Shown here: positions 9,166-62,831 of the stretch, piece by piece
Position numbering within the stretch: position 1 is the first letter of the stretch
Layout of the letters: every line of letters begins with the position of its first letter
Assembly: GCA_000091205.1 (NCBI GenBank)
Contig: AP006491.2
From: Cyanidioschyzon merolae
Lineage: Eukaryota
Strand: one strand, 5' to 3'
Length of the DNA stretch: 64,000 bases
Notes under the pieces: model-generated
The model's input: only the letters and a program-made list of their open reading frames with translations
Told to the model about the DNA's origin: nothing
The model's database searches: none
Translations under genes and position numbers: made by a program

Positions 9166-11605
9166 GCGCGTCGCCACGTGCGCCAATGCATGCATGCGGG
9201 CGCCGCGGGAGGCTCTCGCCAGGCTCGGGAGCGCGCCCCCATGTGTCAGGTGTTGGCGCTGATCGGATCGAGTCACCGGCGTATGCGTGGGTGCGTGCGT
9301 GTGCGTGTCTGTATGTGGATGAGTATGGAGGTTGCAGATGGTGCCGCTTGCTGCCGATGAAGCATTCGCTGGAATATCCTTGTGGCGTCGTTGCAGCTGA
9401 CGTGTTATTTTCGCTACTTATCAGTTAGCGCACGGCAGCGTAGAACGTGGTCATTTTGGCGTTCGAGAGCCCGCTCGAAGCGGTGTACAGGAAGCGCAGT
9501 TGAGCTTGTGAGACGGGAACGTCTATGTTAGTCCAATGTTGCTGACCTGGTTGTCGTTCTGGATGCGGTTGTGCTGTGCGGGAAGCGCTTCGTGCCATTG
9601 CCGGCTCATCCCGAATTCGGCTGGGACCGGTGCGTGGTACGTGGATGTATGCTTTGCATGCCATCAAGACTGAAGGATTTCGCACTTGCCATCTCCTGTC
9701 GAGGCTTTTTTAGGTCGTCTGCAACCAGCTGAACGTTGACTGTGTGTAGGCGTCTCAGCGCGGATGGTTTTTTTTGATCCGTTATGCGCAATCTCATGGC
9801 CAAGTTGTTCGGGCGCTGGGCAGGCGCCGACACATCAGCGTGTCCAGCATGGGGACAGGCGCCTGGAGCAGGTTCGCCATCCGATTGGTCACCCGTTGGA
9901 CTGCTGCACCCTATGGTTTCTACAGGAAGATGAATCCAGGGCTGAATGAACGTAGAGTCCATCGAAGCTGACCAGCGGTCTCTCGCCCGACTTCAGACTC
10001 CAATCCTGTATCCGAAGATAATATCTGGATCGATGGAGCGATCTTGCAGCCTCGGAAAACTCAGCGCAGACCGTGAACACTCGCGGTATACCTGCATTGC
10101 CCCGCAGCAGCATGCGCATCCCGCGCTCGGGCAGTGCAAATGAAGTAGACTCGGTATTCAGTGGGAACATGGTTGTCGCCAGACATTTGTGCAACGCCGC
10201 CCGTATGCATACCTGGACGGTAGGATTGCCCGAGCAGTTTCCGTCGCAGGAAGCGTGCGAGGCATACGTGCAGCGTGGCTGGACAGGGTCCCGGGCGGGC
10301 GGCCTCTGCTGCAGGGTGAGTCTGGAACGACGCTTCTCGTAACGCTCAAGCGCATCGTGCTGTCGATTCGCGTCAGGGATCAGACGATCGCATGAAGCAT
10401 ATGAACAGTGGGAGTCTTGGAAGCGTTTGTGGGCGCACGACCTCCGAATTGAGCCCTGCTGCTGCTATCCTTTGTATTGAACGCTGTACTGTCCGGGATT
10501 TCAGGCCTTTTTCGTGCGCCGCGTCATGTGCTGGGTGTAGCCGTGCGCGACGCGTACGCGGCGGTCCTGACGCGCTGCAGCACTACGAGGTTAGAGGCGC
10601 TCGACTTTATTGTGTTTCACTTTCGCTGCGTCGATGCGAATGGTACTGCGCATTGCGTAGGAGGAGATCGAATTCACGATGCAGTGTACCGTATAGATTG
10701 TGGACGCATCGCCTATAGGATATATATACTTGTCTGAGCAATGCACGGAGGACCGCATTCTTCATTTAGGTCAGTCATACCATACTAGTCAGATTGATGA
10801 GGAACACTGAAAGAAACAAGTAGATGCGCTCTGTGTCAGAAATTGGTATTCTTAAAGATCGCTTGAAGTCGATAGTAGAAAACGACCTGTTCAGCAAGTC
10901 ATGAAGAGCAAAAGCGACAATAATAGCCATCATGGGCGTCTCTGTTTCTCAACTGCTCTTTCGTGTCGTCCTGTAAACACTGGGATACAGTCGCAAAAAG
11001 CGAGTCCAGTTACATGTACGACCATCTTCCACCGAAATCGCAACTAGCACAGAGTCTCTGGAACTCAGCGATCGGTACGAGGCACCGCATCGTCTGTTTG
11101 TTTCTCCAGTGGATGAGACTTGTTTCGGAAGGCACGGTCGGAGTGTATAACGATATTCCCGGAGAAGGGAGCCCGTTGTACGTACGATCCAAGTCGAAGA
11201 GAACGACCACATCATCATTTGTTCTGGATGGAGTGGATTCATGTGTTGGCATCCGTTTCACTCGAACAGGAGGCGCATACAACAGCATCAATCGCTTTGC
11301 TGAATGATTGAAGACGTTTCCCTGACACCTGGCGAGGTCCTTCTATTCGACAACGTGGCACTTCACCATTCCCTTTGCGGTCGAGCTTTTTTCTCTTCTA
11401 TCTGGTAGAACTGCTTTTCATTCCTCCGTACGCTGCATGATTCAATCCCATCGAATAAGTGTTTTTCTATCGTGAAACGTAGTGATCGCTCCAGTGGGCG
11501 AATCCCTGAAGAGTGTTTACCACGGTGACAAAATGAGGAACGTTTCGTCTTTCTTCCGCAAGCCCTTCTCGCTCAGGGAAGGTCCTCACCTAATGCCATA
11601 AACAA

Positions 11606-12010
11606 GTGCGTTCGTTTTTGAAGGACAAAAACCCAAGGGAAAGGCATGCACATGTTAGTCAGGGATCCTGGCGGGTCGATGTCGCGGGCTACCAGGAAAA
11701 ACGACAAAATTCTCTTCTCGCCTACCATCGAGCGAAGATGCGCAAGTATCCGAGAAGAATAGGGGATATAGGCAATGAAACGTACTTGCCCGAAAGTATG
11801 ACGACGAGACTGCAGTGGCACAGAGGGCACGAATTCGAGGACTCCTTTCATCGGTGAGTTCCACCAGCGGCAATAAACGCATGGAGTTCGTGAACCGAGA
11901 CTTTAACACCGCCATCAATATCAGACGATGTGTGGTGCTGAAAATTAGGACCGACCGGCTGACGAGAGCGAATCTCCTGGGCTAGCCCCTCAGATTCGAA
12001 GTGCACACGG
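11606..12010 (+). pseudogene. Degenerate remnant of a Fanzor/TnpB-like gene (RuvC-II to RuvC-III region only, stop-interrupted).
   Basis: Translation gives 'RVDVAGYQEKR' (cf. '[11 protein letters not shown]') and '[49 protein letters not shown]' (cf. copy A '[49 protein letters not shown]'). It lies in a low-GC island at 10.7-12.1 kb. Confidence 0.5.
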
Positions 12011-12374
12011 CGAAGCTGCAGCCGAGAGCAGGCGACCGGTTCGAAAAGGCTGGTGACGCGTCTGCGTATCGGTGGATACATGCGCATTCAATATTTGTAC
12101 AGCTTTGTGCTTTTTTAGGACGATCTGAACAATTAGATATCCTAAATGGGCCGCAAAGCATCCATTGCGAGTGATGGAAACAGCATCAGCGACAAAACTA
12201 CATCTAATGATTTCTAAATAGATCTTATCAAACTAAACGAACAAAACGATCCTTGGCCTCATCAGGTTCCTAGATGCATCATGGACGCCCCCCGCCACGC
12301 GCAATCTTTCCCGCGTTTTTCCGCTTCGCATTGGAGCTGCAGAGACGGCACCGAGTACTTGCACAGAGGAAGCC

Positions 12375-16029: not shown

Positions 16030-16345
16030 TCCGTCCCATTAAAGTCAGACTTGGATGTTTGAAGAAACGAGTAGGTGAGCGTGTGAGCGCTGGTCCAATA
16101 GCATGCGTTCGCTTCGCGCTCCCGCAGGCAGTAGGTCTGTCTGCGCAACTCGCAGGCTCCCAGAATGACAATGAATCCCGACCCTGTGCCGAATAAGGCA
16201 CGCCTCCAGCCGACACCCTCTATGGTATGAGAGAGCCGCTCTGCTGCCGTGCCACACCTGCACCAGCGATAAAAGCGCTCTGGTGGATACTAGCGACAGG
16301 CACTCGGCCTCAGAACAGCACCTATAAAACGACCAGTACACCCGC
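16030..16345 (+). repeat. Interspersed repeat family R1, copy C (5' portion).
   Basis: 'TTCGCGCTCCCGCAGGCAGTAGGTCTGTCTGCGCA...CCCAGAATGACAA...GAAACGACCAGTACA' matches 57660-57900 (copy E). Confidence 0.5.
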
Positions 16346-16734
16346 AAGCAGGTCCAAGTCAACGCTCTTTAAAATAGAGCGAAGCATGATGGGCGCGCTC
16401 AGTGCTTTCGATGTCCATCCCGCACAATCTGGGATCTATGGTTCATAGGAACGTTGAATCAAAATAGAACAAAAAGACTAAAACTGCCCACGATGAACGC
16501 TCCGATCTCGTCGGAGGCACGGCCGGGTGTCGTGCCGCGAGGTGCGTGCTCGCGGCGCCGCGCCGTGCGCTCGCGGCTCGACGCGGCCTGGATCTGCAGC
16601 CGCTGGATTCGCGGAAGACTTTGCACTGTAGGCGTGTGCAGCCGCAGGGAGTTGTGTGTGTGTGCTTGTGTCTGCGCGTGCGAACACCTTCTTGTTCAGA
16701 CTTTGACACTTACTTAGCTTGAGCGTTTTCCAGC

Positions 16735-17724
16735 ATGCTAGGCTTTGTATCCGGAACTGCTTCCTTGACGAAGAAACGAGGCGGCCGCTCGGCGCAAGCC
16801 TGCGGGTCGGCGGTGACGCGTCTGCGGCTGCAAGCGGGTGAGCCGCAGCCAGTTTTGGCGAAGGGCCGTCTACCCAGTGTGACAGCGTTTGCTGCTGCGG
16901 TGCTGCTGGCGGCAGCGACTCACAGCGCAGTTCTAGAGCCGGTGCAAGCGCTCACTGCTCAGGACGTGCGGCAGCTCTCGTACGAGCAGGTGAAAGGAAC
17001 GGGCCTTGCCAATCGCTGCCCCGAGGTGGTTTCATCGAAGGGCAAGATATCCCTTGACAAGACTAAGAAGTACAAGGTTGTGGATTTGTGCCTGGAACCG
17101 AAGCAGTTTCTAGTGGAGGAGGAGGTCGGCCGGCGACGTGGCGAGAGCAAGCGCGAGTTTGTGGACACCAAGCTGATGACGCGAGCAACCTACACGCTTG
17201 CGAATATCGAAGGGGAACTGGTCAATGAGAACGGAACCTGGAAGTTTATCGAGAAGGACGGCATGGATTACGCTGCAACAACAGTCCAGATTCCGGGTGG
17301 TGAGCGTGTGCCCTTCCTCTTCTCCATCAAGAAACTTGTTGCTTCTCTCAACAACGCGGACGATGGCATCTCAACGAGTACTGAGCTTGGTGGCGAGTTC
17401 AAGGTTCCCAGCTACCGCACCGGTATGTTTCTGGATCCCAAGGGCCGAGGCATGGCCAATGGCTACGACATGGCTGTTGCGCTTCCGGCACTCGAGGCTG
17501 ACGGCGCCGTGGGCCAAGAAGTCTTGCGCAAGGAGAATGACAAGGTGTTCCAGGAAACCTCGGGGCGCATCGAGCTTGCTGTGAACAAGGTTGACCCCAC
17601 GAGTAACGAGATTGGAGGCGTGTTCGTGAGCGAGCAGCTCTCGGACACGGACATGGGGGCCAAGGAGCCGAAGAAGCTCCTTCTCAAGGGCGTTTTCTAT
17701 GCCCGTATCCTGCCGTCAGACTAG
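16735..17724 (+). CDS. psbO: Photosystem II oxygen-evolving enhancer protein 1 (PsbO, 33-kDa Mn-stabilising protein) precursor with N-terminal transit/lumen-targeting peptide.
   Basis: 'LTAQDVRQLSYEQVKGTGLANRCPEV' matches the PsbO N-terminal signature (LT[FY]DEIQ..TYL[EQ]VKG[ST]G.AN.CP). The N-terminus carries a basic transit segment followed by an Ala-rich hydrophobic stretch ending 'AVLEPVQA'. Confidence 0.9.
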   Translation: MLGFVSGTASLTKKRGGRSAQACGSAVTRLRLQAGEPQPVLAKGRLPSVTAFAAAVLLAAATHSAVLEPVQALTAQDVRQLSYEQVKGTGLANRCPEVVSSKGKISLDKTKKYKVVDLCLEPKQFLVEEEVGRRRGESKREFVDTKLMTRATYTLANIEGELVNENGTWKFIEKDGMDYAATTVQIPGGERVPFLFSIKKLVASLNNADDGISTSTELGGEFKVPSYRTGMFLDPKGRGMANGYDMAVALPALEADGAVGQEVLRKENDKVFQETSGRIELAVNKVDPTSNEIGGVFVSEQLSDTDMGAKEPKKLLLKGVFYARILPSD

Positions 17725-20700
17725 TTTCCAGGATCTCTTGCGCAAGTATTCTAAGGATAAGGTGTGACCTGGCACGAATCCGTGCCCGCTCAGGGTCGCG
17801 GTTGCATCGGCGGGGACTTGGCGTCTTGTAGTAGTTACAACGTAAAGCAGTGAATTCTGGAATACCCGTACCAGCACGCCCTAACTGCTTTCAGGTAGGT
17901 ATTCATCAAAACAAATGTTTCCTGTAGATACGAGACAGGTCGCCGGACGACTGAATAATGACCATGCTGGCTGGCGAAAAGCGCCATGCTTGAAAAATGC
18001 AGTCATTCTACGGTCAGCGGATGGATAAGCCACGTCTCTCCTGCTCCTCATTCTTAACGTCGTGCACCTGAAACGGTTTTTGTCAAACTCTATTGCAGGA
18101 CGCTCTCCTCGTCAATCGATGCGTTGTTTAGGAAATACCACGAGAAGAGCCACAAGCAGTGCATTCTCCATTCCGTTGGTACGAGCGTTGATCAAGAGAC
18201 CCGAATGGATGCAGAAAACAGCGCGCGTCTATGGGAGCGAATCCCGTGTTGATCAACGCACTGTCGACTCGAGACTGTTACGCGAACGTGCACGACATGA
18301 GGACAGACATTCGTCTCACTCGACGAAACCTCGTTCGGGGGAAACGTCAGACCTTTGTATGGGCACTCAGAGAGGAGCAATTCGGTGTTCTTTAGAAAGA
18401 GAAAAGGGATAAGACGAGAATGTCAGCCCTGGTGACGATTCGTTCGTATGGTAGGCCCCACAAAAAGCCCACTGGACAAGAGCTTCGAAAATCCATTTTT
18501 CGTTGAAACGCTCCGAGCATATACCTATTGATATTCTTTCGCCCTGCTCGTGGATTACGTCATTTCGTATCATTCAAAAGTGGTCAAGTGGTAAGCGACT
18601 GAGATTCATGTTGAGCTGCTCTTCGCGCCAGTCAGTTCTCCCAGGTTTCATGGAGTCCTGGACGTCTTTCCCTTTTGTCCAACGCGACTTGGACGCTCAC
18701 ATATCTGTAGACGGGTCACTTGCATCCGTGACACTGTTCTTCAGCACGTTACTCTCTAGTTTCAACAATTCTGGAACACACTGCTCCTCCTCTGCTCATG
18801 CTGGGCAAGGTGCTGTTCGTTTCGTGGGCGCGCTCGCGACCGAGAACATGACAAAAAAGTACCCGAAAGATAGTAGATATCCACATGCATGGGAAAGGCG
18901 AGCCTCTGTGCTACCGTTCACCCAGTACACCTGAATCCCCTGGAAGAAAAAGATATGATGTAGAGTGACCACATCCATGGCATCCTGCCGATTAAAGAGA
19001 ACGAAGAAGGCTATTGAGAAGGAACCACGAGACAATGAATTGAAAGATCCTTCCGTAAATGGAACCTGGAAGCTCAGGAAGGAGAAACTGTTGAAGCGGA
19101 AACATTGGACCAAAAAACCTGTCGAATCCTCTGCCTTGAAAATCATCAACAGGAAGCATCTGTCGTTAGGATCTGGGACGTCGTTAGAGATCGTGTAGCC
19201 TCTCACTCGAGGAAGGAGTCGCGCATAGTTTCCCTCGTCATGAAACACCGCGTCAAGCAGTTGTTCGAGGGAGTTCCGCATGCATAGCTGCCGTCTGCCC
19301 ACAATTCTACCGGAATTTCTCGATCAGATCTCTGTACGATATTCAAACCATTGCTCGTGACAGATCATCCAACAAGGCCTGATCATTGGATCAGAGATTT
19401 CCGCAGAGAAACACATACATACATACATCCACAAACGCTTCCCAGAAAAACTTGACGTGTTGCCGCGCTTCAAAAACGTCGGCAGGGCAAGTACCAAAAA
19501 AGAATCAAACTATCCAACTTCAAAACCCACATGTAGGTCCAGCGCTTCGCAATCTGCACTCGGTAAGCCTTGTATACTGAACTCTGTGGTCAACGAGAGT
19601 GGAGACCGATGGAAGGAATTTTTGAGGTGCCGCGGGAGGCGGATGACAAGCCCCTGGCCGAGGAGATTGAAAAGGTCGTGCGTTCGGAGCTTATGTCGCA
19701 AGGAGAGCAAGACTAAACCCAGATTGTCCCAGCTCGTTGTATTGCCATTGGCGTCGGACTAGTCGACGTCGAATCCGAAAGATGGCCGGGGACACCAGGC
19801 TGCATTCCTTGCATCTTGCGCGAAGACGATTCCCTGAACAGCACCCTCAGGAACAGAGCAGACGTTCTCTCCGAATCGGGCGCCCTGGCCTCCTCAAAAA
19901 AGCGTATGCGATGCAGTCTCCATAGGTGACATTCTGGCCTATCCCATCAGGGTCGTGAGTCATGCGCTGTCCTGTATGGTGTCTCTAGTGAGCTACGGCT
20001 GCTCTCCGCACGCAAGTGTGAAGTATTCGAACCAGCGCACGAAGCGCACTGGCGTTGTTCGTACATGTTCTCCCGTTTTATTCATCGACAAACTGGAAAG
20101 AATATTTCGGGGACTCTACAGACAGACGGAATACCGAGGTGCAGGTACACCACGAAACCTACGCCGCACTCGAGTAACGAGACACATTTTCAACCGGCCC
20201 AAGTGGATACAGATAAAAACGGTAGAATATTCGTGGATTCCGCTTTGCAGGGCGTTGTCGTCATCGCTGTATCTCTGAATGAAGAGCACAGAGCCAAAGT
20301 CGTGGACAGGAAGCGGTTGAACCTGATCAGTTTTTTGAAGGCTCAGTATCATCGGAATTCGGGCATGCTAGGTGCCAGGACACCAACGAACAAGTGGAAT
20401 GGAGTGACGGGGTCAGGACCGAAATCGACGCACTAAGCACCGTATTGAGCAGAAGGGGATGCTTTCGAAGCGTCGTTCAGAGACTATTGGAGCGTCCAAA
20501 TGACTCATATGGATGACGTTTGGCAGAGGTACACGAAAGTCACGCTGATGACGCCAACTGTTCCGGTTGTTTGGAGCTCCGCGACGTGCTTTCAGCAACT
20601 GGGTCAGTACGTTGGAAATAGAAACGGCGTACAAGTCGGGTATTTGGATTTATTCCATGGCGATAAATACGCAGTTCAGCGCATAGCTGCGCTTATACTC

Positions 20701-21523
20701 CTTCAACGTGAGCGCACAACGAGTAACCGATTCCATTCTATACAATTCCCATCGAAGCAATCAGGAAGACATCCACACGTCACGAGCACGGGTGCCTGCT
20801 GAAACTGGTAGACAAGTCGCGCATGAAACAGAGCAGAACGTACGATATGGAGTCCGACCAGTTGACCAAACATCAGATGACGGTACAATCGAAAGTGAGA
20901 GGTTCGCTATGGTATGGTTCCAACGGCGAAAAGGCGCGCAAACTCTTTCCCCACCCGGTCTTGAAGGTCTCGATCGACATCCGCAAATCTGGACTACACC
21001 CGAAGGTTCCAGCGGTAAAGTTCCGCGCGAACCTGCAAGCGAATCATCTTGTACTCCATATGGACATCGTGCTGAAACGCTGAAGAATTCCACTGAGATA
21101 AAGCGTTGACCTGGGGGCTGCGGGCACTGGATTCCCATCTGGAGCAACGCACTCATATGGTACAGTTCAGCAATTCATCAAGGTAAGTGCGCCGAATGGA
21201 TCTGCTTCTGGGACGGTTTCCACGGGCAACTGGTGATCCATCATTGTGTTCCAGTATTCAGTATGATTGAGAATACGACGTAAACACTGTTGGAGCACAA
21301 CGCTTGAGGGCGCTCGCTGCTCCACGTGCCCAAACGCCACCAAGGAGTAGCGAGCAGCAGCAAGCATCATGCCCGTACGAGTGTGGTGTGCAGGGCACTC
21401 CTTTTGTCTGCGGATATAGCGCTTTTCATGGTTGTGGACAGGAAAATCTCACTAGATTTGTACGCCGGAGCAATGACCGGGGAAGAGAACTCAGCTTCTC
21501 CGAAGATGGGGTCCCGTTCCAAT

Positions 21524-34892: not shown

Positions 34893-35139
34893 GAATCTAC
34901 CACGTGGTCCAAAAGTGTTCCGAAGAGCGTTTGTAGCGACACCCGCTGTGCTACGGGAACGGTTAGCTAATGCCCCCCAACCGATAGGCTACGGCAGTGA
35001 GGATCGCGGCACCACCAGCAGCAGCAGCCGTTACGCCAAAAAACGCTTAGCAGATGCTTTACTCGGCGGTCGGCTGTGCGTACGGCGCAGCGCACGTGCA
35101 CGTGCGGTGCCCGTGAGGCCGTCGAATGCGTCGATTGCG

Positions 35140-35468
35140 CTGATGCTGCTGCTGCTGCTGCTGCTGATGCTGCTGCTGATGCTGATGATGCTTTCGGAGG
35201 TGGCGCTCATTGCCGCCTCCGCTTTGCGATTTAGCCGATCTCCCGTGCAAGGTGGCGCTGCTGCTGCTGATGATGCTGCTGCTGCTGATGATGATGCTGA
35301 AGATGCTTTCGGAGGTGGCGCTCATTGCAGCCTCCGCTTTGCGATTTAGCCGATCTCCCGTGCAAGGTGGCGCTGCTGCAGCAGCTGCTGCTGATGATGA
35401 TGCTTTCGGAGGTGGCGCTCATTGCCGCCTCCGCTTTGCGATTTAGCCGATCTCCCGTGCAAGGTGGC

Positions 35469-35499
<31 letters not shown>

Positions 35500-35568
35500 A
35501 TGCTTTCGGAGGTGGCGCTCATTGCCGCCTCCGCTTTGCGATTTAGCCGATCTCCCGTGCAAGGTGGC

Positions 35569-35599
<31 letters not shown>

Positions 35600-35610
35600 A
35601 TGCTACGTTC
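35140..35610. repeat. Tandem array (4 units of ~96-116 bp) containing (GCT)n/(GAT)n tracts and a conserved 9-bp-stem hairpin; ~250 bp upstream of the isoamylase start.
   Basis: Unit 'GATGCTTTCGGAGGTGGCGCTCATTGCCGCCTCCGCTTTGCGATTTAGCCGATCTCCCGTGCAAGGTGGCGCTGCTGCTG...' starts at ~35187, 35303, 35399 and 35499. Confidence 0.75.
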
Positions 35611-36825
35611 GATGTTCGTTCTAATTCTAATATGTCGCTGCAGGGTAGGCGTACGTTCATGGAGCGAAGCGATGCAGGCTAGTAATAAGGATCGTGTACT
35701 GGATATCTTGGAGTTTGTACGCTGGTGTTGAAACTTGTACGTGACTTTCATTGTTGTTCTCTATGAGAGTAACTGCGAGGCGATCTGATGGCATTCGATA
35801 CGGCAATGCAGCTGTTCCTGGATGAAAAGCAGTTCCGCTGGTATCTCGCTCGATAGCACTGGCGGATCAGATGCGTCCTCGTAAGCGCGTCACGGGATAC
35901 GTCCACGCGCTGCTTCTTTCATTGGTACGGGGAAACGCCTGGGTTCTCTCACGCCTTGGTTTCTTCTATGATAAAACGAGCGCTTTCGTTTCTACGACGC
36001 TTTGCACGCACTTATCACTGGACTGCACGGCCCGTACCCTCTGCGCGTCCAAGCTCGACACTGTAACGTATCCAAGACGCAGTACGGATGGTGCACACTG
36101 CCCGTGCTAGTGCGTCCCTATTGCAAAGCGTCGGGGCAGATGGCTGCCCAGCGGCCTGGCAGCGGGCCGCAAGCGTACGCTTTCCTCCTGGAAGACTCGG
36201 GGATGTTGTATCACGAACGAGCGCCCCAGAGCTGCCTCCATTCCCAGACACCGACTAGTGTGGTATCGAAAACGTTCTCTTCCAGTGGTTTTCTTCGCCG
36301 CTGTCGTGCGGATTGCCAACACAGTGGTTCACGAGAAGGAGCACGCCTTCTGCCGGGTGCCGAACCCCGAGCACGCTGCCGTGCGCAGCATCGTTCCGTG
36401 TGGATGCAACCATACCGGAGACTGCTAGCACGCATCGACTACTGTTCATGAGGCGCTGTCTAGGAAGATGCCATTGATAAGGCGCACAAAACAGGAATTC
36501 GCATGGCGCTCGCGACACTCTCCTGTGTTCTGCAGACTTGAGCCCAGCGCATGTCCAGTACGTTTCCGCTGCATATGGAGCGCACTGCAGCCATCAGGCG
36601 TCAGTTGCGATGCCGTGCAGGACGCTTGTACAGGATAAATGCAATTGAGGCTCAACCATGGCGTGTATTTGAAAACATAATCAGGAGGCAACGACGTTGA
36701 CATCTGTGTGCAAGAGCCCCCAGGGTAAGGCTCAGTTCCGGCATTGGCGGCCCCGGGGCACGGCGGACAATGGCCGTACGCATTCGGTTTGGAGTGTTTT
36801 ACTGGTAAAGGTGCTGGGGTGACTG

Positions 36826-37027
36826 CTTTAGACTTGCTGGACACCCGGTACAGAGCCTATTGGAAAAGCCGTGCTTTCTAACGTTTGTCAGCTTGATCAA
36901 TCGTTGGGAAGCGCTGCTTCACCTGCCTTAGACTTGCTGGACATCCGGTACGGAGTCCTTTGGGAAGCCGTGCTTTCTACCGTTTGTCAGCTTGATCACT
37001 TGTCGGCAAGCGCTGGTTCAACTCCCT
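36826..37027. repeat. Two tandem ~101-bp direct repeats ~100 bp upstream of the PheRS-alpha start.
   Basis: 'CTTAGACTTGCTGGACACCCGGTACAGAGCC...GCCGTGCTTTCTAACGTTTGTCAGCTTGATCAATCGTTGGGAAGCGCTG' is repeated with ~88% identity. Confidence 0.55.
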
Positions 37028-37124
37028 GAGACTCACTCCGCAACGGAACAGGCCTTTGTGCACAACCCAGACTTCCAGGATTCCGCAGTGTGAACAAGCA
37101 ACGTCGGGTTCAGCAGCGCTCAAA

Positions 37125-39519: not shown

Positions 39520-39900
39520 TTCGCGCACGCGTGATCGATTTTTTTTCATGGACAAAACGTTAACTTAGGGCAGCGTACTCCGATTATGCGCATTTTTCTT
39601 TTGTTACTTTTTTTTTTTGTGTTTTTTCAGTGCGAGGTGAGGTATTCATCAACCGCCTACCTTCATGTTACATTACCTATACTTCGTCTCGGATATTCTG
39701 GTCGTTTCATACGTCCTATCGTGTGCCTAGTGCCTGGCGAAAGCGACAGCAATAGCGCCTATAGCGCCGGTGCGGTCGCTGCACGGAGACAGAACGGCGT
39801 TGCCGTACCACAAAGGGCGTCGGCTCGAGGCGTGGTTCACTCGACGTAGAATCGGGTCTCGTCGTCAGTTTGTGCTCGGAGAGTCTGCGGATGCAGGCTT
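39520..39900 (-). repeat. Interspersed repeat family R1, copy D (inverted orientation).
   Basis: The reverse complement of 39560-39720 reads 'AGGACGTATGAAACGACCAGAATATCCGAGACGAAGTATAGGTAATGTAACATGAAGGTAGGCGGTTGATGAATACCTCACCTCGCACTGAAAAAA...', matching copies B and E. Confidence 0.55.
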
Positions 39901-41405
39901 GTCTTCGTTGCACGACACGCTGGAGAAACTTGGCTGTTAGGATGAATCCTGGGAGCCGCCTCTCTCCTTCGTGATCATGCATGGAATGCGTTGTTGTCGG
40001 TTGGCAAGGCGGATTTGTGCTTGACACCCACCAGTGGGTAGGCGCAGAAAGCAGTGGGCCCGTGTGCGCACCCGATTCGCTGGACCTTCCGCCTAGAAGG
40101 TAGCGTGTGAGTTTGTTCGCCACTAATGAGCGCTGAGGCTCGGTTAGCGGACCATCAGTTACCAGTGCTACACTCAGAGTGAGTGTCCGGCCTTCGGCTA
40201 CCACGCTGATGCCCAGCTGCTGCTGTCCTTCAAGGAGCTCGCTGCGCTCCTGCTTCCAGCGCGGGCACTGTAAGCCAAAAATATGTCAGCGTCTCGGGGA
40301 TCTCATCCCCACTCGCGTGATCGATGCAGGCGCACACCTTGCACGCATGCGCTGGAGACACGTGTACGCACGGAGGCGCTGTGCGGGGCGCTGCACGCCC
40401 AACGCCATCTGCGTGCGGGCGAGATCGCAGCTGCCACGTGGCATTTGCGCATCAGTGCTGCTGATGCCGATACCTGCTTCCGTGCGCCACCGGGGAACCT
40501 CGCCGAGCAGCGTGATCGGCCACACTGCCGCCGTGTGCGTATGAATGCGTGTGCGTGTGTGTGTGTGTTCATTTCGCAACCCGTTTGTTGCGTGTGCATT
40601 GTTGACGAACTGCGCATTTGCCTATCGCCTAGTGAAAGGGGCGTTTACGAGAGCACTGCAGGGTTTCGCGGGTGACACTCTTGTTGTTTTACGTAAAAGG
40701 CGTTATTTTCCAATGCTGTCGTTCGTTTCTGCGTTGTGGTGGCATGCGCGACACGGTGTGGATATGCCGGGGTTCTTGCCCGGAGTGCGCTGCGGCCTCT
40801 CGTCTGGGCTTGTTCGGAACCGAATGATATGGTCGGCTGCCACAGCGGCCAAGGGTGGGAAACCCAAAGAGGCTAGTCGCGAGCAGGCGAAGCGCCCCGA
40901 ACGCAAGGACGACGACAGGGGCTTTCAAAAGGGTGGCGGCGGTGGTGGCGGTGGTGGTAACGGCAGCGGCAAACCTACCAAGCGCGACAAGTAATGTGGA
41001 AATAGCGGCGTTTAGCGGTGGCAAGACGGCGTGCAAGCGTTCGGAGGAGCGTCATGGAAGCCTGTATGCGGGTGGCGTGCAGCTAGGTTTCCGGTCAGAG
41101 AGCGTTACGTAAACGAGAACTGGTCTTCGTGACATCGTTTGCTGCATCATTCGCCATTTGGACGTCCAGAACAGCGCTTTCGAGCTCGCATATGCCGTGT
41201 TTTTTCTCTCTCTCAGTCGCGTTGGTATGTCAGCAATGCGAAACGATTGCGAGAGCGGAACCGGAAAACGCGTATCCTCGCATACACGGCTGGACGTTGT
41301 GCAGCCACGAGGCGGCAAGTCGCCAGGCACCTCAGTTCCCTGCATCGCTGGCGCGATACTCCTTACCTAAAGGTAGCCGCGCTCGGGTTGTCCGCCGCAT
41401 TTTCC

Positions 41406-54354: not shown

Positions 54355-56173
54355 TCAGGGGCGCTCCCCAGAACACATCACAACGAGTGCGCACGCTGCT
54401 AATGCGAGAACGCGCACAAACCCCAGCCACCCGACACGCTGTGTATATAATAGGGACAAACATTTTGTCCGCAGCGTAAGCACTATATACTGAACTGAAA
54501 GAAAGAGTTGGTAAACTTCGTTCACGCACCGCGCAGTGTCGTAGTCACCGGCCGAAATGAAGCTCGTAAGAAACGAATGAATGGAGGGCTGTAGCTCGCA
54601 CGGCCGGCGGCGGTGGCTCGCACGGCCGCCGACGGTGTTCAGCAGTGGCGGCGAACGCGCCTTAGACAAATCGTCTCCACCTGATGTGCAGACGCCTCCC
54701 AGTTTTTTGGACCGGCCACCCACTACTGCTTCCAGCTTTTTCTTATATAGTTCCACTTTGGTAGGTTGTCCAACAAAGTTCTCTCGTGTCCAGTCTGGAG
54801 GCCTTTTCTCCATTACCGCACATCTTACATTGATCACTGCGTGAAAGTCTCTGTTCACGAATTCCATCCGTTTCTTGCCATCATTGAGTGTACTTACTAA
54901 TGCAAGCAATCCTCTAAATTTCGCCCTCCTTTCCATTTGCCCCTCCATCAGCGCTCCGTATTTTTTTATATCCTCAGGACTCCTCTGGCACTTTTCCATC
55001 CCCACTCTGTGATGCGTACACCCCAGTTCGTGGTGTGTATACGATGTTCGGAACTCGTCTACAGGTATCGTAGCGAAACGCCGTGCGCACTCCTTGTACG
55101 TTCTTGTCGACGGAGCTGGTGTAGTCCCTTTTTTGGACGCCCAGCGCTCTGCTCCGTACGCTACGACGAGCCTCTGACTTTCATTCTCCTTGAGGGCGCT
55201 CAACGCATTGAAAAAGTTGGCAAATGCACGCAGCTTACCACAATACAGATTCTTACGCAGACGAGCCCACCGGCGCTTGGTGTACTCTTCCCACAGCGTA
55301 TCCCAATGAGCAACGCGGACCTTCCATGGACTCCCGAAAAGCTTCAAAGTCCGCTCCTTGACTCGTCACCTCGCTCAAAGCTTCTAGGTGATCCTTCATT
55401 CCTGAATTCCAGCTCTCGATTTTCTTCCCCGCATTCATGATTCCCGATTCTCGATAGTATCTAGCTCTCGAGAACCTCAATAGACGCATGTCTTTCTGAC
55501 GTAAACTACCGTCAGTACCATCTTCCGCACACTTCGGTGCTGCGATGGTGATGATATTTGTGTTTCCGGGGTCCGCGCCAACGACAAAGTCGATATCTTG
55601 CACTTTCTGCGTCGCAGGAGCCGCCTTGTTGTTATCTTCATGCTTCGTCGCGTCAACGACCAGGTCGTTATCCTCCACCTCCTGCATCGCAGGATTCGCC
55701 TTCTTCTTCTCTTCATGCTTCCCCGCGTCAACGACAAGGTCGTTATCCCCCACTTCCTGCGTCATAAGACCCGCCTCCTTCTCATTTCCTTCCTTCGCCG
55801 CGTCAACGAGAAAGTCATTATCCTCCAACTCGTGCGTCTCTGGATCCTCCTCTTTGTTTTCTTCGTTCTTGGTCACGGGCGTAGCCGAGGGCGGACCAGG
55901 ACGATCTGTCTTCAAGCGCCGATAGTGTACACACATGGCTACTCCATCGGTTTCGATCATCCCAGTGAATATCTTTTGTTTGCTCACTCTCAGGCGTTTG
56001 AAATTGAAGATGTTCTTTAAGTACGTCTCCCGGTTTTCACCGGAGAATTCTTCCCTGCTGACACTGAATTCGGGACTGATCTCCTTCATGATGCCGTAAA
56101 GGACTCTGGAGTCGATGGTCACAAAATGTGACTTGATATTGGACATCGGAATCACGTTAAAGCGCTTCCCCAT
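54355..56173 (-). CDS. TnpB-like (Fanzor-type) RuvC nuclease, copy B. Exon 1 is 56173-55257, the intron 55256-55199 and exon 2 55198-54355.
   Basis: RuvC-I '[18 protein letters not shown]', RuvC-II-region '[11 protein letters not shown]', zinc-finger region '[28 protein letters not shown]', RuvC-III '[20 protein letters not shown]'. The same GTAAGA/TTGAG intron as copy A joins the two ORFs. A 1-bp change in an A-run relative to copy A moves the stop from the 54676-equivalent to 54355. Confidence 0.6.
54628..54800 (-). ncRNA. Candidate omega-RNA scaffold region at the 3' end of Fanzor copy B.
   Basis: Same conserved 3' terminal block as copies A and C. The adjacent flank (54600-54627) would supply the guide if the element works like TnpB/Fanzor. 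Confidence 0.25.
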
Positions 56174-56199
56174 TAGGAAAGCCTTCCGTCTCTCCTACT

Positions 56200-57104
56200 C
56201 TTCATTTGTCTTTTCGCTCAGCTTCATCTCCGCTTCGCGTTCGAGCTCCGGGTCCAAGAACACAAAATACCGTACGACGATGCGATAGTATCTCCCCTGA
56301 TCCTTTTTCAACTCTGATATCTTTTCTGTTGGATTCACCAGCCCCAAGATTGCACGGCGCTCTTGTATAACCGAACGGATGAGGGAATTCTCATTTGTGC
56401 TCCTGCGTGACGTCTTCTTGTCGACAAATTCGACCTCATCTCCATTCTTACGATCTTTCGTAAAGCCATTGGTAATCGCCTATATTCATTTGAGAGAGCT
56501 GCCTGGGTAGAGTGCAAAAACGGCGCGTACCATGAAACGTTCGAGTTTCACGATCACGTGATTCTCCAGTTTCGTGATGTACTTCGTCGCCCCTTATATG
56601 TAAACATTCGAATCACCCCTGTATGGAGTACTGTTGAAGCTGTAGAGGGGATGTTTTTCGTAAAGGCCATGCACTAGCACATTTTCCCTCCGCGTTTCCG
56701 CTGTGCCAAGCATCAGGTGTCGAATAAATGTCTTACCGAAAAAATCGTCCGGAATCTCGACCGTTTCCAAGTGCGCCACGTTTTCGTACATCTCTCTCGC
56801 CAAATGCATCAGTCTTGACGACGCCTTGAAAATACTCATGGAGTACGAATCGAAACGTTTTTCGATAGCGTCTCACAAATTTTCCCTGTAAGGATGGTTG
56901 ATATGTTTAAGAAGACGGGCTTTCACCAGCATCTCGTCGAACAGTCGTCTTTCTTGCCGCCTTCGACTTAGGGCCTCCCCTTTTGCTTCTTCTTCTTTTC
57001 CTGTTCTTCTGGACTCGGCTCTGTTTTTTGTTTTTATTTCTGGCAGCAGGCGACCCTGGACCTACAGAATCGTCGACTTGCTTTTTCATAGCTTTTCTTT
57101 TCAT
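56200..57104 (-). pseudogene. N-terminal region of the copy B Fanzor gene (K/R-rich NLS-like segment plus putative WED-like domain), interrupted by in-frame stops.
   Basis: 'MKRKAMKKQ...RNKNKKQSRVQKNRKRRRSKRGGPKSK' (56907-57104). Downstream, '...FMVRAVFALYPGSSLK*I*AITNG...' is homologous to the continuous 164-aa ORF of copy C (62119-62613, 'FMIRVAFVLYPGIFREAMLAIIDG'). Confidence 0.4.
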
Positions 57105-57589
57105 TTTTTTTGTGTGAAAAAGAACGCTCTTTGAACCCTTCTATTATATACTGCGAGAAATCAATTGAATATGTTTACTTGAGGGTAGAGACACAATCGA
57201 ACTGGAAACTATGATTTGTTACGACTTCCACGCAAATACAGCTTGCCCGTTAGAACATCAAGAAAACGTGTCGTCACGGTCGCGTTTCTCTTCGAAGGCG
57301 ACAGATGCGTCGTGTCTCGTAAGTGCCATACTTGGAGATGCACGTATCGAGCGCGCCATACAGGAAAAAGGACAGTGACCTACGATTTACAAGAAACGAT
57401 ATAAAATTTTTTCCCGCTCTACGATAAGCGTTTAAGGGGAAATAGATCGCCGTACTATCGGAAGCTTATGTTCGAGGCGGAAGGTCCCGCGAGCCGGTCG
57501 AGTCTACCGGGCTAGAGCTCGGTATGCCTCTAAAGTGGCCGCTGCCGCTGCTGCCGCTGCTGCTGCAAGACCTGCGTAGCTCGTTCGCA

Positions 57590-58095
57590 ACGCATTTTAT
57601 CCTGAGACTATGCACAGGACGCTGCGTTGGGCCTCGCCCTGGTCGCAGTGGAATCCTAGTACAGCACTTCGCGCTGTCGCAGGTAGTAGGTCTGTCTGCG
57701 CATTTTGCATGTTCCCAGAATGACAAATAGCCCTGATTCCGGTTCAGGTGAATCATTCCTCGAGCGGACGCCCTTAGTGGTATGGCAAAGCCGTTCTGTC
57801 TCTGTACAGCACCTGCTTGAGCGGTATAAGCGCTACAGCGGGTGCTCACAACAGGCTCGGCGCTCGATAGAACATACGAAACGACCAGTATATCAGAGAG
57901 GTAGTATGGATAATGGGACTTGAGGACAGGTGCACTATGATCGAGATATCCCCGGAAGCCATCGTGCGTTCCGAATTCTGGGATGCATGGGCAATGCAAA
58001 CGTTCTTTCATCGAAAAGAAAAAAACGCTCCGGAGGCGGACTCGTCATCGAGACGCGCATCGCTCTGGATCGAATCTCCGGAAGGCGCTTCTGGG
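57590..58095 (+). repeat. Interspersed repeat family R1, copy E (longest, ~0.5 kb), abutting the 5' side of Fanzor element copy B.
   Basis: Aligns to copy C over its 5' half ('GCAGGTAGTAGGTCTGTCTGCGCA...CCCAGAATGACAA') and to copies A, B and D over its 3' half ('...ACGAAACGACCAGTATATCAGAGAGGTAGTATGGATAATGGGACTTGAGG...GAAAAGAAAAAAACGCTCCGGAGGCGGAC'). Confidence 0.55.
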
Positions 58096-58402
58096 CGATC
58101 GCGAAAGCCCTCAAGTGCATCTTTGTGTCCTCAACGGATAGCATGCTTTATTCGGGGCGCTCAGTCTCGGGCGTTCCCTCTGACTTAAAGCAATAGCTTC
58201 GTGGATCCTACAGCTGTGTTGTCAAAGAGCACTGTACCTAGTTTTGGCGAGGCCTATAGTGCTGGAGAACAAAACGATCACGGGTTTGTAGCGATCTCGG
58301 CACCAGTGCTGGAAACAACCCTGCACTGCAGCTCGGGCGATCTGAAACCTGTAGTCGGACTTTTTCGAAGATCTGTCTGGCAAGGAAGCAAATCGTGGAA
58401 CT

Positions 58403-59479
58403 GTGCTCTTTGGAATGACGTCAGGGATCGACGAGGCAGCAGCTGAGCTTCAGGGAAGTCTCTTTGGGGACGTCTCGCCTGCGATCGACACGCCGGGTGC
58501 GGCGCTTGCACGTTCGTACCCCGTCCGCATCACCGTTGTCGGAGCTGGTGACGTTGGCGTTGCTTGCGCCTATAATATTTTGACCCGAGATATTTGTAGT
58601 GAGCTGGTACTGGTGGACGTTCTCAAGGACAAACTCAAGGGTCAAGTTATGGACTTGCAGCATGGAGGTGCGTTCTACAGCACCCGCATCCGGGCTGCCG
58701 AGTCCTACGAGGATACAGCACATTCGGCAGTATGTATTATAACGGCAGGTGTGCGTCAGCGGCCCGGAGAAAGTCGTCTTGAGCTCATGGATCGCAATGC
58801 CGCATTGTTCAAAGGCATTATTCCGCCCCTGGTGCAGTATTCGCCGAACACAATCCTGTTGGTTGTGAGTAACCCCGTTGATCTATTGACACATCTAGCG
58901 TGGCAGATGAGTGGCTTGCCTCGCGAACGTGTGATTGGCTCAGGGACATATTTGGACTCTTCGCGTTTCCGCACACTTCTGGCGCAGCGGCTGGGCATCG
59001 ATACCGCTTCTGTCCAGGCCATGGTACTGGGCGAGCACGGAGACTCCTCGTTTGTGTACCGGAGTGGTATTACGGTTGGTGGCGTGCCGTTGCGAACATG
59101 CTTCGAGCGCATGACCGACGCTGCGAGCGCGTCCACAGCATTCTATGATCTGGTGAAAGGTGTCCATCAGCAAGTTGTAGCCGCGGCTTACGAGGTCATT
59201 AAGCTGAAAGGCTACACCAACTGGGCCATTGGCAGCGCTGTTGGAAGCATCGTTACAACGATTGTGCATGATCGGCGCAAAGTGCTGCCAATAACGACGC
59301 ATGCGGGCTCGTTGCGAGGCCTCGAGTCGGCGGATGTATTCTTGTCGTTGCCTTGTGTGCTAGGTCGGAATGGTGTCGTTGAAGTACTACAAATACTGCC
59401 GTTCATGGAAAGTGACGAGAAAGAAGACCTCCAATCCAGTATAGAGGCACTCCAGAGCACGCCGAAGAAAGCATCTTGA
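58403..59479 (+). CDS. L-lactate dehydrogenase (LDH/MDH superfamily, LDH-type motifs).
   Basis: 'ITVVGAGDVGVACAY' (GxGxxG), 'DVLKDKLKGQVMDLQHG', 'IITAGVRQRPGESRLELMDRN', 'LLVVSNPVD', 'GSGTYLDSSRFR', and 'LGEHGDSS' (the LDH-type GEHGDS rather than MDH GGHGDT). Confidence 0.85.
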   Translation: MLFGMTSGIDEAAAELQGSLFGDVSPAIDTPGAALARSYPVRITVVGAGDVGVACAYNILTRDICSELVLVDVLKDKLKGQVMDLQHGGAFYSTRIRAAESYEDTAHSAVCIITAGVRQRPGESRLELMDRNAALFKGIIPPLVQYSPNTILLVVSNPVDLLTHLAWQMSGLPRERVIGSGTYLDSSRFRTLLAQRLGIDTASVQAMVLGEHGDSSFVYRSGITVGGVPLRTCFERMTDAASASTAFYDLVKGVHQQVVAAAYEVIKLKGYTNWAIGSAVGSIVTTIVHDRRKVLPITTHAGSLRGLESADVFLSLPCVLGRNGVVEVLQILPFMESDEKEDLQSSIEALQSTPKKAS

Positions 59480-60644
59480 GCATGTTGCCTGTGCGTGGTA
59501 ACGCGTTGGATGCGGATCGTTTACAGGGACGTTAATCAAATGCCTCGTCGAAGTGCGGGCTCTGCACAAGCGTGCTCGGTCTGTACTCAAAATAAGCGGA
59601 TGGACAAGGAGGACTGAGATATGCTGGATACCTATGCCAAACTGGTAGGTCTTGGCAACGTACAAAAGGTGTGGAGGGGAGCGTCCGTAACCATCTCGGC
59701 GAGCTTGTTCCAAATGGACAGCATTGCTGAAGGACAAGGTGGCACCAGAATTGCAGCTGCAGAGTAGCGTTCGCCTACTATCATCATTGAAACCTGCTAG
59801 TCGTGTCATGGATACCGGACGTGATGGAGTTCGCATCCGCCACAGCGAACAAGGATCAAATCAACTGACTCAAAATTCTCCAAAGCGATGCGTGGATGAA
59901 AGCTGGCGAAAGTTGCGGGTCTGGTACGGCATAACGTACGCTTACCCGGATGCCGATATGCATCGCGCCTGGCCCGAGATACCCTGGTTCAGGTCAACCA
60001 TTCTAAACCGCAGGATAAAAGTATGCCATGATTTAACGTTCACTGATGTTGGCTGGACGGCATCGCAACGCTCCACGAACCTGGGCGCGGCGCCGAAGGC
60101 TTAGTTTCCGAGTATGACCGTGACAGACTTTGCTCTATGCGTACGGATCTGGAAAACACGAGCCGGAAGTGTGCACCAGCACGCATGGGCGACGAATAAA
60201 ACCCTTAAAGCGACGTACGAACAGTGACCTAACGATGCAAGTGGAACGAACCGAATACCCTGAGGAAGGTATGATGGCACAGCTTCTGCCTTGAGAGCGG
60301 GTGCACAAGCGCTTCAGTGCGGTAGAGGCGAAATCGTGCCGAAACGCCCGATTCGCGTCAGCGCTTCCAGTGACCAGGAATGTGCCTCCAGCTTCTCTGA
60401 CGTTCCTCTCGCGTCCCAGCAATTCTGGTACAAAGTTTCGCTCTATGCAGCACAGGCGCTGATGCAGCGCTCCTTCGGAAGCCCTGCCTTCCGCAAACTT
60501 GCACCGAAACGTTCCGTACGCAGCTATTGTGGTTATGCTTCAAAAGCAGAACGGTATTGCAGTGTCTTGGAAGCGTCGGCTCGAGCTTCTGAGGCCGAAA
60601 CGTCTCGGACGACCGCCGCACCCGACGACAACAAACATCTTTCA

Positions 60645-62831
60645 AAACAAAAACGTTGCTGCCGGCAGTGTACAGTAGTGGCGGCAACCGTGCCCTAGAC
60701 AAGAAGTCGCCAACTGACGTGCAGACGCCTTCCCGTCTTTTCCGACCTGCCACCTACTGTGGGTACCATTTGTTCTCATATAGTTGCAGTTCAAGAGGTT
60801 GTCCAACAATGGACTCTCGTGTCACCGCTGGGAGTCTTTTGTCCATTCCCGCACATCTCCGTAGATTGATTGCAGCGTTAAGGACTCGGTTCACGAACTC
60901 CATACGTTTCTTGCGGTTGATAGTCGTACTTACTAGTGCAAATAGTCCACGAGCTTTCCCCCTCCTTTCCATTTGCTCTCCGGTCAGCTGTCCCTTACTT
61001 TTTTATATCATGACGACTCCGCTGGCACTTTTTCCCTCTCCACCCTCTGAAGAGTATATCCCAACTCGTCGTGTGTAACGATGTTCGGAACTCACCCACA
61101 GGTAACGTAGCGAGACCCAGTGCGCACTCCTTGCCCATTCCTGCCGTTGGAGCTGGTGTAGTCCTTTTTTTTTCGGAGCCCAGCTCCCTACACCATATGA
61201 ATCAACGAGCCTCTGACTTGATTCTCTTTCAAGGCGTTCAATCGATTGAAAAAGCTCGCGAATGCGTGATGCTTACCACGGCACAGATTCATACGCAAAC
61301 GAGGCCACCGGGGCTTTGTATACTCGCCCTACAGCGCCACGGAATGAGCAACACGAACTTCCATGAATTTCAGAAAAGCTTGAATGTCCGCTCGTCAGCT
61401 CGTCACCACGCTCAAAGCCTCCAGGTGATCCTTCATTCCTACATTCCACGTAACCATCTTCTTCCTTGCATTCATTATACCGGATTCTCGATAGTATCTC
61501 TCTCTCTCGAAAACCTCAGCAGAAGCATATGTTTGTGGCGTAAGGTGCCGTCAGTGCAATCTTCCCTTCGCTTGTGAACAGCGATGGTTATGATATTCGT
61601 GCACCAGGGACTAAGGCCGACGCCAAAGTGGTTTTCATGGGGCTTATACGTTCCATAGCCCGTCAACCTGTGTTCGTTCTTCGGCAACGCCCGTAAAGAA
61701 GACGGGATAGGACGAGCTGCCTTCAACCGCTGATGGTGTACACATATGTGCGCCACATCGAGATCGATTGTTCCAGTGAATAACCTTTTTTTGGCCGGTT
61801 CGGGACGCTTGAAATCGAAGATATTCTTCTAGTAGGCGTCCCGATCTTCACCGGAGACCTATTTGTTGATTACATCGAGCTATGGATAGATCTCTATCCT
61901 GAAGATGCAAAAGGACTATGGGGTCGATATTCACAAAATGTGACTTGAACGCGCATAACCGACCGACATTGAAGCGCATCTGGAGAAGACTTCAATGTCG
62001 TTTCTCGCACTCGTCTTTTTTTCCACACTCAGCTCCATGCCGACCCTGCGGTCGAGGTCTCGGACCGAAAACATGGAGCAGGGCAGGATGAGAGAGTAAC
62101 AACTCTCTCCGTCGTTTCTCATATCCGAGAGTTTTCTCTTGGGCTGACATGACCCAAGACCGAACGATGTTTTAGAATAGTGGCGCGAATTACAGGAGCA
62201 TCATTCATTATCCTGCGTGATGTCCTCTTGTCGACGAGTCTGATCTCCTGTTCATGCTGGCGATCGTTCTTCATACCATCGATGATTGCAAGCATCGCTT
62301 CGCGAAATATGCCCGGGTACAGCACAAAGGCGACGCGTATCATGAAACAATCGAGGTTTGCCATTTTATGGTTCCTCATATTCGTGAGGCACCTCTTTGC
62401 CCTGTAGTCGTAAATGTCTGCGTCACCCTTGTGTCCAGCACCGAAGACGAGGAATTTGGCGTAATTCTTGAGGAAGGCATGCCCTCGCTCACTTATCCCC
62501 GATGTTTTCCCATTAAAAACAATCAGGTAGTTGATAAAAGTCTTTTGGAAAAATTTTTCCGGAAACATCACTTTCGCGATAAGCGTTACGTCCCGATGCA
62601 GGTCGCTGTCCAAATGCCAACGTCCTAAAGAAAAGCTCCAAACATACCCGGCCTACGATCCGCCACGGTTTCTGATAGCGTCTCGCAACAATCAGTCGTA
62701 CGGATCATTGATATGTTGGAGAAGATAAGATTCCACCACCATCTTGTCGTACAGAAGTCACAATTTCGGCCTTCGATGTAAGGCCCCCCATGTTGCTTCT
62801 TCTTCTTTTCCTGACCCTCTTCGCTAGGCAA
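60645..62831 (-). pseudogene. Fanzor/TnpB-like gene of copy C, pseudogenised. It lacks the 3 extra tandem repeats seen upstream of RuvC-I in copy B.
   Basis: Homologous segments lie in different frames and carry stops. The RuvC-I aspartate context is degraded to 'GLSPW'. Confidence 0.5.

Follow-up and report, generated by a model that had tools for sequence, protein, structure and literature searches.

Repeats in a Cyanidioschyzon merolae contig read as decayed copies of the Fanzor1-bearing element CMe-1A

A stretch of 64,000 nucleotides from contig AP006491.2 of Cyanidioschyzon merolae (C. merolae; assembly GCA_000091205.1), hereafter referred to as the window, contains a repeat family that an initial annotation, made from the sequence alone, had described as a TnpB-like, Fanzor-type RuvC nuclease family. 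Here, we report that these repeats are very probably (we estimate about 0.93) decayed copies of CMe-1A, a single-gene mobile element of ~3.2 kb that lacks terminal inverted repeats (TIRs) and carries the Fanzor1 gene CMe-1. The CMe-1A family was published in 2013 from C. merolae, and the finding is a correct rediscovery of the founding red-algal Fanzor1 family. In the sections of Bao & Jurka 2013 (Mob DNA 4:12; PMC3627910) that deal with it, Fanzor1 and Fanzor2 are defined, and one Fanzor1 family, CMe-1A, is assigned to C. merolae. It is described there as having ~150 copies, each ~80% identical to the consensus and ~3 kb long, and as being of unknown class. The same sections report that CMe-1A has no TIRs and that some copies are still intact. 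Furthermore, its 5' 635 bp correspond to TE-N2_CMe, a short element present in 70 copies. Red algae are also found among the Fanzor hosts in later surveys.

The reference sequences were the 3169-bp CMe-1A consensus and the 734-amino-acid CMe-1 protein, both from the supplement of PMC3627910. Copies were aligned to the consensus, in which the coding sequence occupies positions 906-3110, using blastn and MAFFT. The initial annotation had proposed four loci of one protein family, and repeat searches recovered all of them. Copy B (58013-54603, minus strand) spans consensus 1-3169 with 83.6% identity. It is thus larger than the span first given to it, and the bases at 54355-54602 are read-through beyond the copy into flanking DNA. 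Copy C (63789-60636, minus strand) also spans consensus 1-3169, with 72.7% identity. Copy A (1-773, plus strand; 87.6% identity) is the 3' third of the element, consensus 2392-3169, the rest being cut off by the edge of the window. The fourth locus (11604-12054, plus strand) is an internally deleted remnant that comprises consensus 869-969 and 2840-2960. It was detected both as DNA, with matches at 11604-11708 and 11823-11940, and by tblastn, with a protein match at 11806-12054 that covers amino acids 640-723 with 56% identity. The identities of the copies to the consensus, 73-88%, are in the range given by Bao & Jurka 2013 (PMC3627910). Moreover, the frame-corrected copy protein is ~78% identical to CMe-1, one of the proteins by which Fanzor1 was defined in 2013.

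Comparison of the copies with each other shows that A and B are the closest pair. Segment 1-752 (+) of A and segment 54627-55377 (-) of B have a DNA identity of 97.3% in the repeat search, and the proteins are 96% identical over the 218 amino acids that they share. The near-identity noticed at first is therefore real, including the quoted differences EMETCQ/GMEKCQ and RPRYWTR/RPPDWTR. Segment 54625-57003 of B aligns with 60658-62813 of C at 64-76% DNA identity, and a short piece of the remnant, 11869-11925, matches as well. The 5' part of copy B (57356-58013, minus strand), which corresponds to consensus 1-647, is TE-N2_CMe-like by its matches to the consensus, and copy C carries such a 5' segment as B does. 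Three solo TE-N2_CMe-like fragments were identified by repeat and consensus matches: 8861-9038 (-), consensus 84-257; 16109-16464 (-), consensus 1/10-350; and 39656-40102 (+), consensus 84-282 and 457-534. These three fragments account for the inverted-repeat pairs I4, I6, I9 and I10 and for the direct repeat D5 of the repeat scan.

A search of a large protein collection returned 143 relatives of the window protein, all of them metagenomic. The intact relatives have 676-731 amino acids and a textbook NRDFNAAINIRKC motif. The family was widened by a second, alignment-based search, and some of the distant relatives match the Pfam family PF07282 (Cas12f1-like TNB, formerly OrfB_Zn_ribbon); relative P0228, for example, scores 29.0 bits against a cut-off of 26.3. 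A profile built from just 15 close relatives did not match the Fanzor proteins in the PDB, and the link was seen only with a profile of 46 members. This larger profile matches PpFz from Parasitella (9cf0) with an E-value of 5.8e-18, SpuFz from Spizellomyces (8gkh) with 4.3e-10, and GtFz from Guillardia (9cer) with 1.8e-3. In these matches to solved Fanzor1 proteins, the DPG, DEFRT and NRDxNAA motifs of RuvC are aligned. The wider branch comprises 825 clusters at 50% identity for E<=1e-30, and 3473 for E<=1e-10, among 1.84 billion representatives. Many database relatives bear the Pfam tag PF26935.

Fold comparison led to the same family. The AlphaFold model of P0104, an intact relative ~43% identical to copy B, has a predicted local distance difference test score (pLDDT) of 88.5, and its best match in the PDB is SpuFz, with an E-value of 2e-18 and a template modelling (TM) score of 0.70. 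For P0004, a relative with 75% identity to copy B, the model has a pLDDT of 80.6 and SpuFz is again the best PDB match (E=8e-16, TM score 0.71). Both TM scores are normalised to the target, SpuFz. The top seven PDB matches of both models in Foldseek are all Fanzor1 proteins (SpuFz, PpFz and GtFz), with E-values from 1e-14 to 1e-18, and Cas12 and TnpB are far behind, at best 1e-4. Sequence profile and predicted fold thus support the assignment of the copies to Fanzor1. The initial annotation had named in advance the absence of a profile match, or of an RNase-H-like RuvC fold, as a result that would count against a Fanzor-type family. The 46-member profile matches Fanzor1 and the predicted fold is Fanzor-like, and together with the identity to CMe-1 they bear out the family that it had proposed.

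The catalytic motifs can be followed through the copies. The DPG motif at RuvC-I is in use as a Fanzor criterion (PMC10711439). Its catalytic aspartate is present in copy B (codon 55573), is invariant in the family alignments and is lost in copy C. At RuvC-II, the segment VDEFRTSY is found in A, B and C; it aligns with LLDEYKTS of SpuFz and shows the expected glutamate followed by [TS][TS]. At RuvC-III, the consensus and the relatives have NRDFNAAINIR. The aspartate is kept in A and B, and copy C reads NRVLNAA, in which it is lost. The motif strings quoted by the initial annotation, RDFHAVINV among them, are present in the six-frame translation of copy B.

The coding state of each copy was assessed by projecting it onto the consensus reading frame. 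In copy B, the Fanzor1 coding remnant runs from 54662 to 57089 on the minus strand, as projected onto the consensus coding sequence 906-3110. It contains four frameshifts, at ~57037 (+2), 56979 (-1), 55321 (+1) and 54703 (-1), which correspond to consensus positions 957, 1014, 2447 and 3068, and five in-frame stop codons in addition. All three catalytic codons are kept: the RuvC-I aspartate at 55573, the RuvC-II glutamate at 55056 and the RuvC-III aspartate at 54849. In copy C there are 12 frameshifts and as many stops, and the catalytic aspartates of RuvC-I and RuvC-III are replaced by serine and valine, respectively. Copies B and C are thus full length but dead, and what the window shows of A is part of a copy that belongs to the frameshifted subfamily of B. 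A and B have in common the +1 frameshift at consensus 2447, which is a single extra G (GAA-G-GTC), and a 3-bp deletion at consensus 2943. On a metagenome contig from an independent assembly (P0027, locus L001), the predicted product matches the 306-residue truncated product of B at every residue. Because this assembly has the same truncated open reading frame (ORF), the frameshift is real and not a sequencing error, and sets a subfamily apart.

All the copies in the window are pseudogenes, and an active nuclease cannot be encoded there. A functional OMEGA-type system is therefore not supported by this window. The initial annotation had rightly regarded copy C and the remnant at 11.6 kb as decayed. 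It had also stated that no copy was fully intact, which stands, but copy B is more broken than it implied.

Directly upstream of the RuvC-I motif, copy B contains an in-frame coding tandem repeat with a 75-bp unit (55573-55877, minus strand), which was found by alignment to the consensus. There are 4 units in B, amounting to 225 extra bases, 1 in the consensus and at least 5 in some metagenome copies, and the number varies among loci L047, L048, L058 and others. Each unit re-encodes a strand resembling NDLVVDA. In the model of P0004 this region (residues 375-470) is predicted to be disordered, with a pLDDT of ~30.

The similarity of A and B had been taken as a sign of recent mobility. A metagenome contig, L022 (Ga0078972_1003857), contains the orthologous copy-B locus together with its flank and is 94.6% identical to the window at 55884-59436. 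The insertion of B predates the split of these strains, and recent mobility is therefore only weakly supported; in addition, A, B and the metagenome copy L001 share the frameshift. An alternative, possible though on balance doubtful, is that A and B owe their likeness to a dead copy having undergone segmental duplication or gene conversion, and not to recent transposition. The frameshift and 3-bp deletion private to A, B and L001 imply that what was copied was already defective; the insertion of B, being orthologous in a strain ~5% diverged, is not young; and the 2.7% by which A and B diverge is comparable in magnitude to strain divergence. However, the similarity of A and B stops inside the element end, at consensus ~3145, and the flanks are unrelated, which fits separate insertions with a later truncation of B. 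The comparison of flanks is limited to the downstream side of A, its upstream side being outside the window. These data would agree just as well with defective copies having been mobilised in trans.

The element ends were compared among 80 related metagenome loci, including ~75 copies of CMe-1A, most of them from the same few samples. At the 3' end, the last ~70 nucleotides past the stop codon are conserved and rich in hairpins, and the hairpin-forming 3' untranslated region (UTR) is found in 35 non-redundant copies. The 3'-terminal hairpin occurs in three sequence variants, CGTCGTTCGA-CTT-TCGAACGGCG, ACGTTTTTC-TTTT-GAAAGGCGT and CGTCCT...AGGACG, each of which is followed by GTT and then by unrelated flanking DNA. 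The terminal hairpin was assessed by folding each copy separately, because the three variants pair in different registers and cannot be scored by column; most copies fold as predicted (mean z -1.6). In the window, copy C retains the terminal hairpin (variant I; 60636-60700) and copy A has a degraded one (715-790). Copy B is without it (54603-54664), and its clear homology stops at 54625-54627, consensus ~3145. The conserved 3' hairpins would fit a guide-adjacent stem, which is not proof of one.

At the 5' side, the part of the element that bears the Fanzor gene, the core, starts with hairpin-forming sequence at ~57355 in B and at 63152 in C. Many CMe-1A copies begin at consensus ~648-671 and not at 1 (L007, L024, L035, L047, L055, L066 and others). 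Four contexts were found upstream of the core: TE-N2 in direct orientation, TE-N2 in inverted orientation, another repeat, and unique DNA. This suggests that the published consensus is a composite of TE-N2 and the Fanzor-bearing core. The 5' hairpin of the core is GCGCTC-GGT-GAGCGC, or GCGCG-GTCGATA-CGCGC in another subfamily, the pairing being kept in both. In most copies, folding is predicted for this hairpin as well as for that at the 3' terminus. No target-site duplications were seen at B and C, which is a weak test as B is truncated at its 3' end.

A further resemblance was observed at the published 5' end. The T-rich ~15 nucleotides outside it (58014-58030), together with the first ~15 nucleotides of B (57990-58013), are similar to variant I of the 3' terminal hairpin, in direct orientation. 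This likeness, over ~30 nucleotides, is clear in B and in L022:1400-1450 and weaker in other copies. Possible readings are a terminal direct repeat, a tandem junction, a long duplication or mere coincidence.

Several results weigh against reading the repeats as remnants of a Fanzor1 element with its guide RNA. First, in single-sequence searches, neither the element's ORFs in the window nor the frame-corrected 491/734-residue reconstruction matched any relevant Pfam family or PDB sequence. Since the window protein alone has no match, it can be linked to Fanzor only through a profile, through fold comparison or through the published sequence. The Pfam OrfB search proposed earlier thus failed with the window proteins and succeeded with the distant relative P0228, which reaches PF07282. 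Second, on the RNA side, most copies are decaying neutrally, and Rfam, at its gathering thresholds, has no match in the window. A covariation count on three inner 3' helices drawn by hand, H0-H2, gave 81.8% pairing against 81.4% in shuffles, which is no better. In addition, RNAalifold recovered only one 4-pair helix from 29 aligned 3' ends, and ARAGORN found nothing in the window.

Third, the CxxC...CxxC zinc ribbon, part of the family motif of 2013, is absent from CMe-1 and from all 46 aligned relatives. Between RuvC-II and RuvC-III, CMe-1 reads THHELGC...LLALVSTT, with H..L and L..S at the places where SpuFz has cysteines. A typical sequence of this region among the 46 relatives is DEFRTTKVHHEDGS...RGLLWCSST...FVNRD, and the equivalent in B lies at 54849-55056. 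The zinc finger first described in the window, of the form TSY..HH..C..HH..C, is thus not a canonical C4 finger. Its second HH replaces the LQ of the consensus, and does so in A and B alone. A C4 zinc finger has been described in "many" Fanzors, not in all (PMC10711439).

The N-terminus had been described as rich in lysine and arginine and similar to a nuclear localisation signal (NLS). The N-terminus of the consensus is indeed basic, with GKKRKT and KKQKREARRQR in its first 45 residues, a candidate NLS. In the window, the ORF at 56907-57104 follows the homologous frame over a short stretch only, between its second methionine (57089) and ~57037. The 2-bp insertion at that point ends the frame, so most of the K/R-rich text of this ORF is out of frame, and the basic stretch of B is interrupted by frameshifts.

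Given their hairpins, CMe-1A and TE-N2 may form a TIR-less, hairpin-ended family that moves by a single-strand route (HUH-type, IS200/IS605-like or rolling-circle) or by homing guided by omega-RNA. We hold this only tentatively and think it rather improbable. It is suggested by the core hairpins, which are kept at both ends through different sequence variants, and by the ~30 nucleotides at the published 5' end that resemble the 3' terminal hairpin in some copies. Also counted in its favour was the spread of the frameshifted subfamily (A, B and L001) despite its defect, implying that its copies were mobilised in trans. A more specific proposal, and an unlikely one, sees CMe-1A as a rolling-circle element of the Helitron2 type, non-autonomous and with a captured Fanzor1 gene, in the manner of CRe-1/2/3 of Chlamydomonas. 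Helitron2 elements are defined by hairpins at both ends, and CMe-1A has hairpin-forming sequence at the 5' end of its Fanzor-bearing core, a hairpin at its 3' terminus and no TIRs. However, the terminal inverted repeats of asymmetric kind (ATIRs) that define Helitron2 are absent, with just 7 of the 27 copies containing an exact inverted match of at least 6 nucleotides, and not at a consistent position. There is no RepHel gene in the window, and the true 5' terminus is ambiguous (consensus 1 or ~648) with a variable upstream context.

The possibility that the copies are functional, with introns, programmed frameshifting or sequencing error removing the breaks so that B or A would be an active Fanzor, is very improbable. 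All three catalytic codons are kept in B, and near-intact members of the CMe-1A family exist elsewhere (P0004/L055, with 722-752 amino acids, and L021, with 747). On the other hand, the published consensus ORF is continuous and intron-free, and B departs from it by indels of 1-2 bp at four sites and by five stops due to point mutations. The single extra G leaves no room for an intron, and introns were rejected as the cause of the breaks on this ground and on that of the continuous consensus ORF. The identical 306-residue product in an independent assembly and the missing 3' terminal hairpin of B also speak against function. Finally, prokaryotic insertion sequences of the TnpB/IS605 family, present through contamination or recent transfer, would share the RuvC aspartate-glutamate-aspartate (D-E-D) layout and the lack of TIRs, but they are hardly credible here, as the copies lie between nuclear genes of a red alga, the window proteins do not match the Pfam OrfB families, Fanzor1 fits far better than TnpB or Cas12f (E-values of 1e-16 to 1e-18 against 1e-4 at best), RuvC-I has the Fanzor-type DPG motif, and there is no TnpA nearby nor any transposase ORF in or adjoining the elements.

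For intact members of the CMe-1A family, a working scheme can be proposed by homology with characterised Fanzor1 enzymes (PMC10432273, PMC10530073). Intact CMe-1 would be an NLS-bearing RuvC (D-E-D) endonuclease. It would bind an omega-RNA derived from the 3' part of the element that encodes it, that is, from the last part of the ORF and the hairpin-rich 3' UTR, and the guide would be provided by the DNA directly beyond the element end. The complex of CMe-1 and omega-RNA would then cut matching double-stranded DNA beside a short adjacent motif. Four metagenome contigs of 4-5 kb (L002-L005) contain intact ORFs of 699-702 amino acids from a sister lineage (P0107 type, with an MPPKKQKR... start). 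If an active enzyme is sought, these ORFs are more promising than any in the window.

A fifth Fanzor-like locus, which the initial count of four had missed, was detected at 19021-21080 (plus strand) by tblastn with CMe-1 and metagenomic relatives. Its amino acid identity to P0104 and P0107, two intact metagenomic proteins, is 25-40%, and the match extends across almost the whole of both. It contains many stops, and its RuvC-II and RuvC-III motifs are lost. We read it, from this similarity, as a probable very old relic of a second Fanzor1 lineage, sister to CMe-1.

The window belongs to the nuclear genome of a cyanidialean red alga, a photosynthetic eukaryote with few introns, and its assignment to an algal nuclear genome was correct from the start. 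Its genes include PsbO, isoamylase, a CBM20-trehalose-phosphate synthase, LDH and PheRS, and it has long intron-free ORFs at ~55% GC. The PsbO precursor (16735-17724, plus strand) is identical in 329 of 329 residues to chain O of PDB entry 4YUU, a red-algal photosystem II, which places the host in the Cyanidiales; the gene content and compactness of the window agree with this order. On gene context, a giant-virus origin and a bacterial origin were both rejected. Two other repeats, both unrelated to the Fanzor copies, were observed in the window. One is a tandem array of ~100-115-nucleotide units, rich in CTG/GAT triplets, with 4 copies that are 89-95% identical (35110-35620). The other is a pair of 69-nucleotide direct repeats, 99 nucleotides apart, directly upstream of the PheRS ORF (36866-37033).

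The result matters little beyond bookkeeping, and the understanding of how Fanzors work is unchanged by it. It does indicate that a Fanzor can be recognised from its RuvC motifs by a reader of sequence only, in a window where the family survives as fossils. The only openings that remain are the class and termini of CMe-1A and TE-N2, and the cysteine-less branch of nucleases. The end hairpins, the variable 5' context, the missing zinc-ribbon cysteines across a large branch and the second, much older Fanzor lineage of this genome could help to classify CMe-1A, the type of which was left as "unknown" in 2013, and could guide the choice of intact cyanidialean Fanzors for testing. With these cysteines lost, an intact thermoacidophile member of the branch could turn out to be a zinc-independent RNA-guided nuclease of unusual robustness.

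The element in the window is the same as the published CMe-1A with its protein CMe-1 (PMC3627910), and nothing essential differs. Relative to the sections of that paper that describe the family, the details added here are that many copies start at ~648, where the upstream context differs, that hairpins are found at either end, that the 75-bp coding repeat changes in copy number, and that the frameshifted subfamily (A, B and L001) has multiplied. Among characterised proteins, SpuFz1 of Spizellomyces punctatus (PDB 8GKH, 9CEU-9CEZ; Saito et al. 2023) has an overall fold like that of the CMe-1 relatives, and the DPG, DE[FY][RK]TS and NRD motifs align. Both are encoded by a single ORF, are eukaryotic and are borne by transposons. 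However, no more than 14-16% of the sequence is identical, the CxxC...CxxC zinc ribbon of SpuFz is missing in CMe-1, and the SPu-1 elements have 33-bp TIRs and TA duplications whereas CMe-1A has neither. RNA-guided cleavage has been demonstrated for SpuFz; for CMe-1 it is presumed by homology.

The CRe-1/2/3 elements of Chlamydomonas, which are non-autonomous Helitron2 elements, resemble CMe-1A in being algal, multi-copy carriers of Fanzor1 with end hairpins and without a transposase of their own. They differ in their genes, which have 5-10 exons where CMe-1 has one, and in their Helitron2 ATIRs, which were not found in 27 copies of CMe-1A. The bacterial TnpB-only elements of the IS200/IS605 group (IS1341 type) are a third comparison. 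Unlike these, CMe-1A has no detectable Pfam OrfB/TnpB signature, has the Fanzor-type DPG motif, is set in a eukaryotic nuclear genome and has no known TnpA partner. In common with them, it has a single RuvC-nuclease gene and subterminal hairpins, with neither TIRs nor target duplications. In IS1341-type elements the guide RNA comes from the 3' end, and by analogy the same may hold for CMe-1A.

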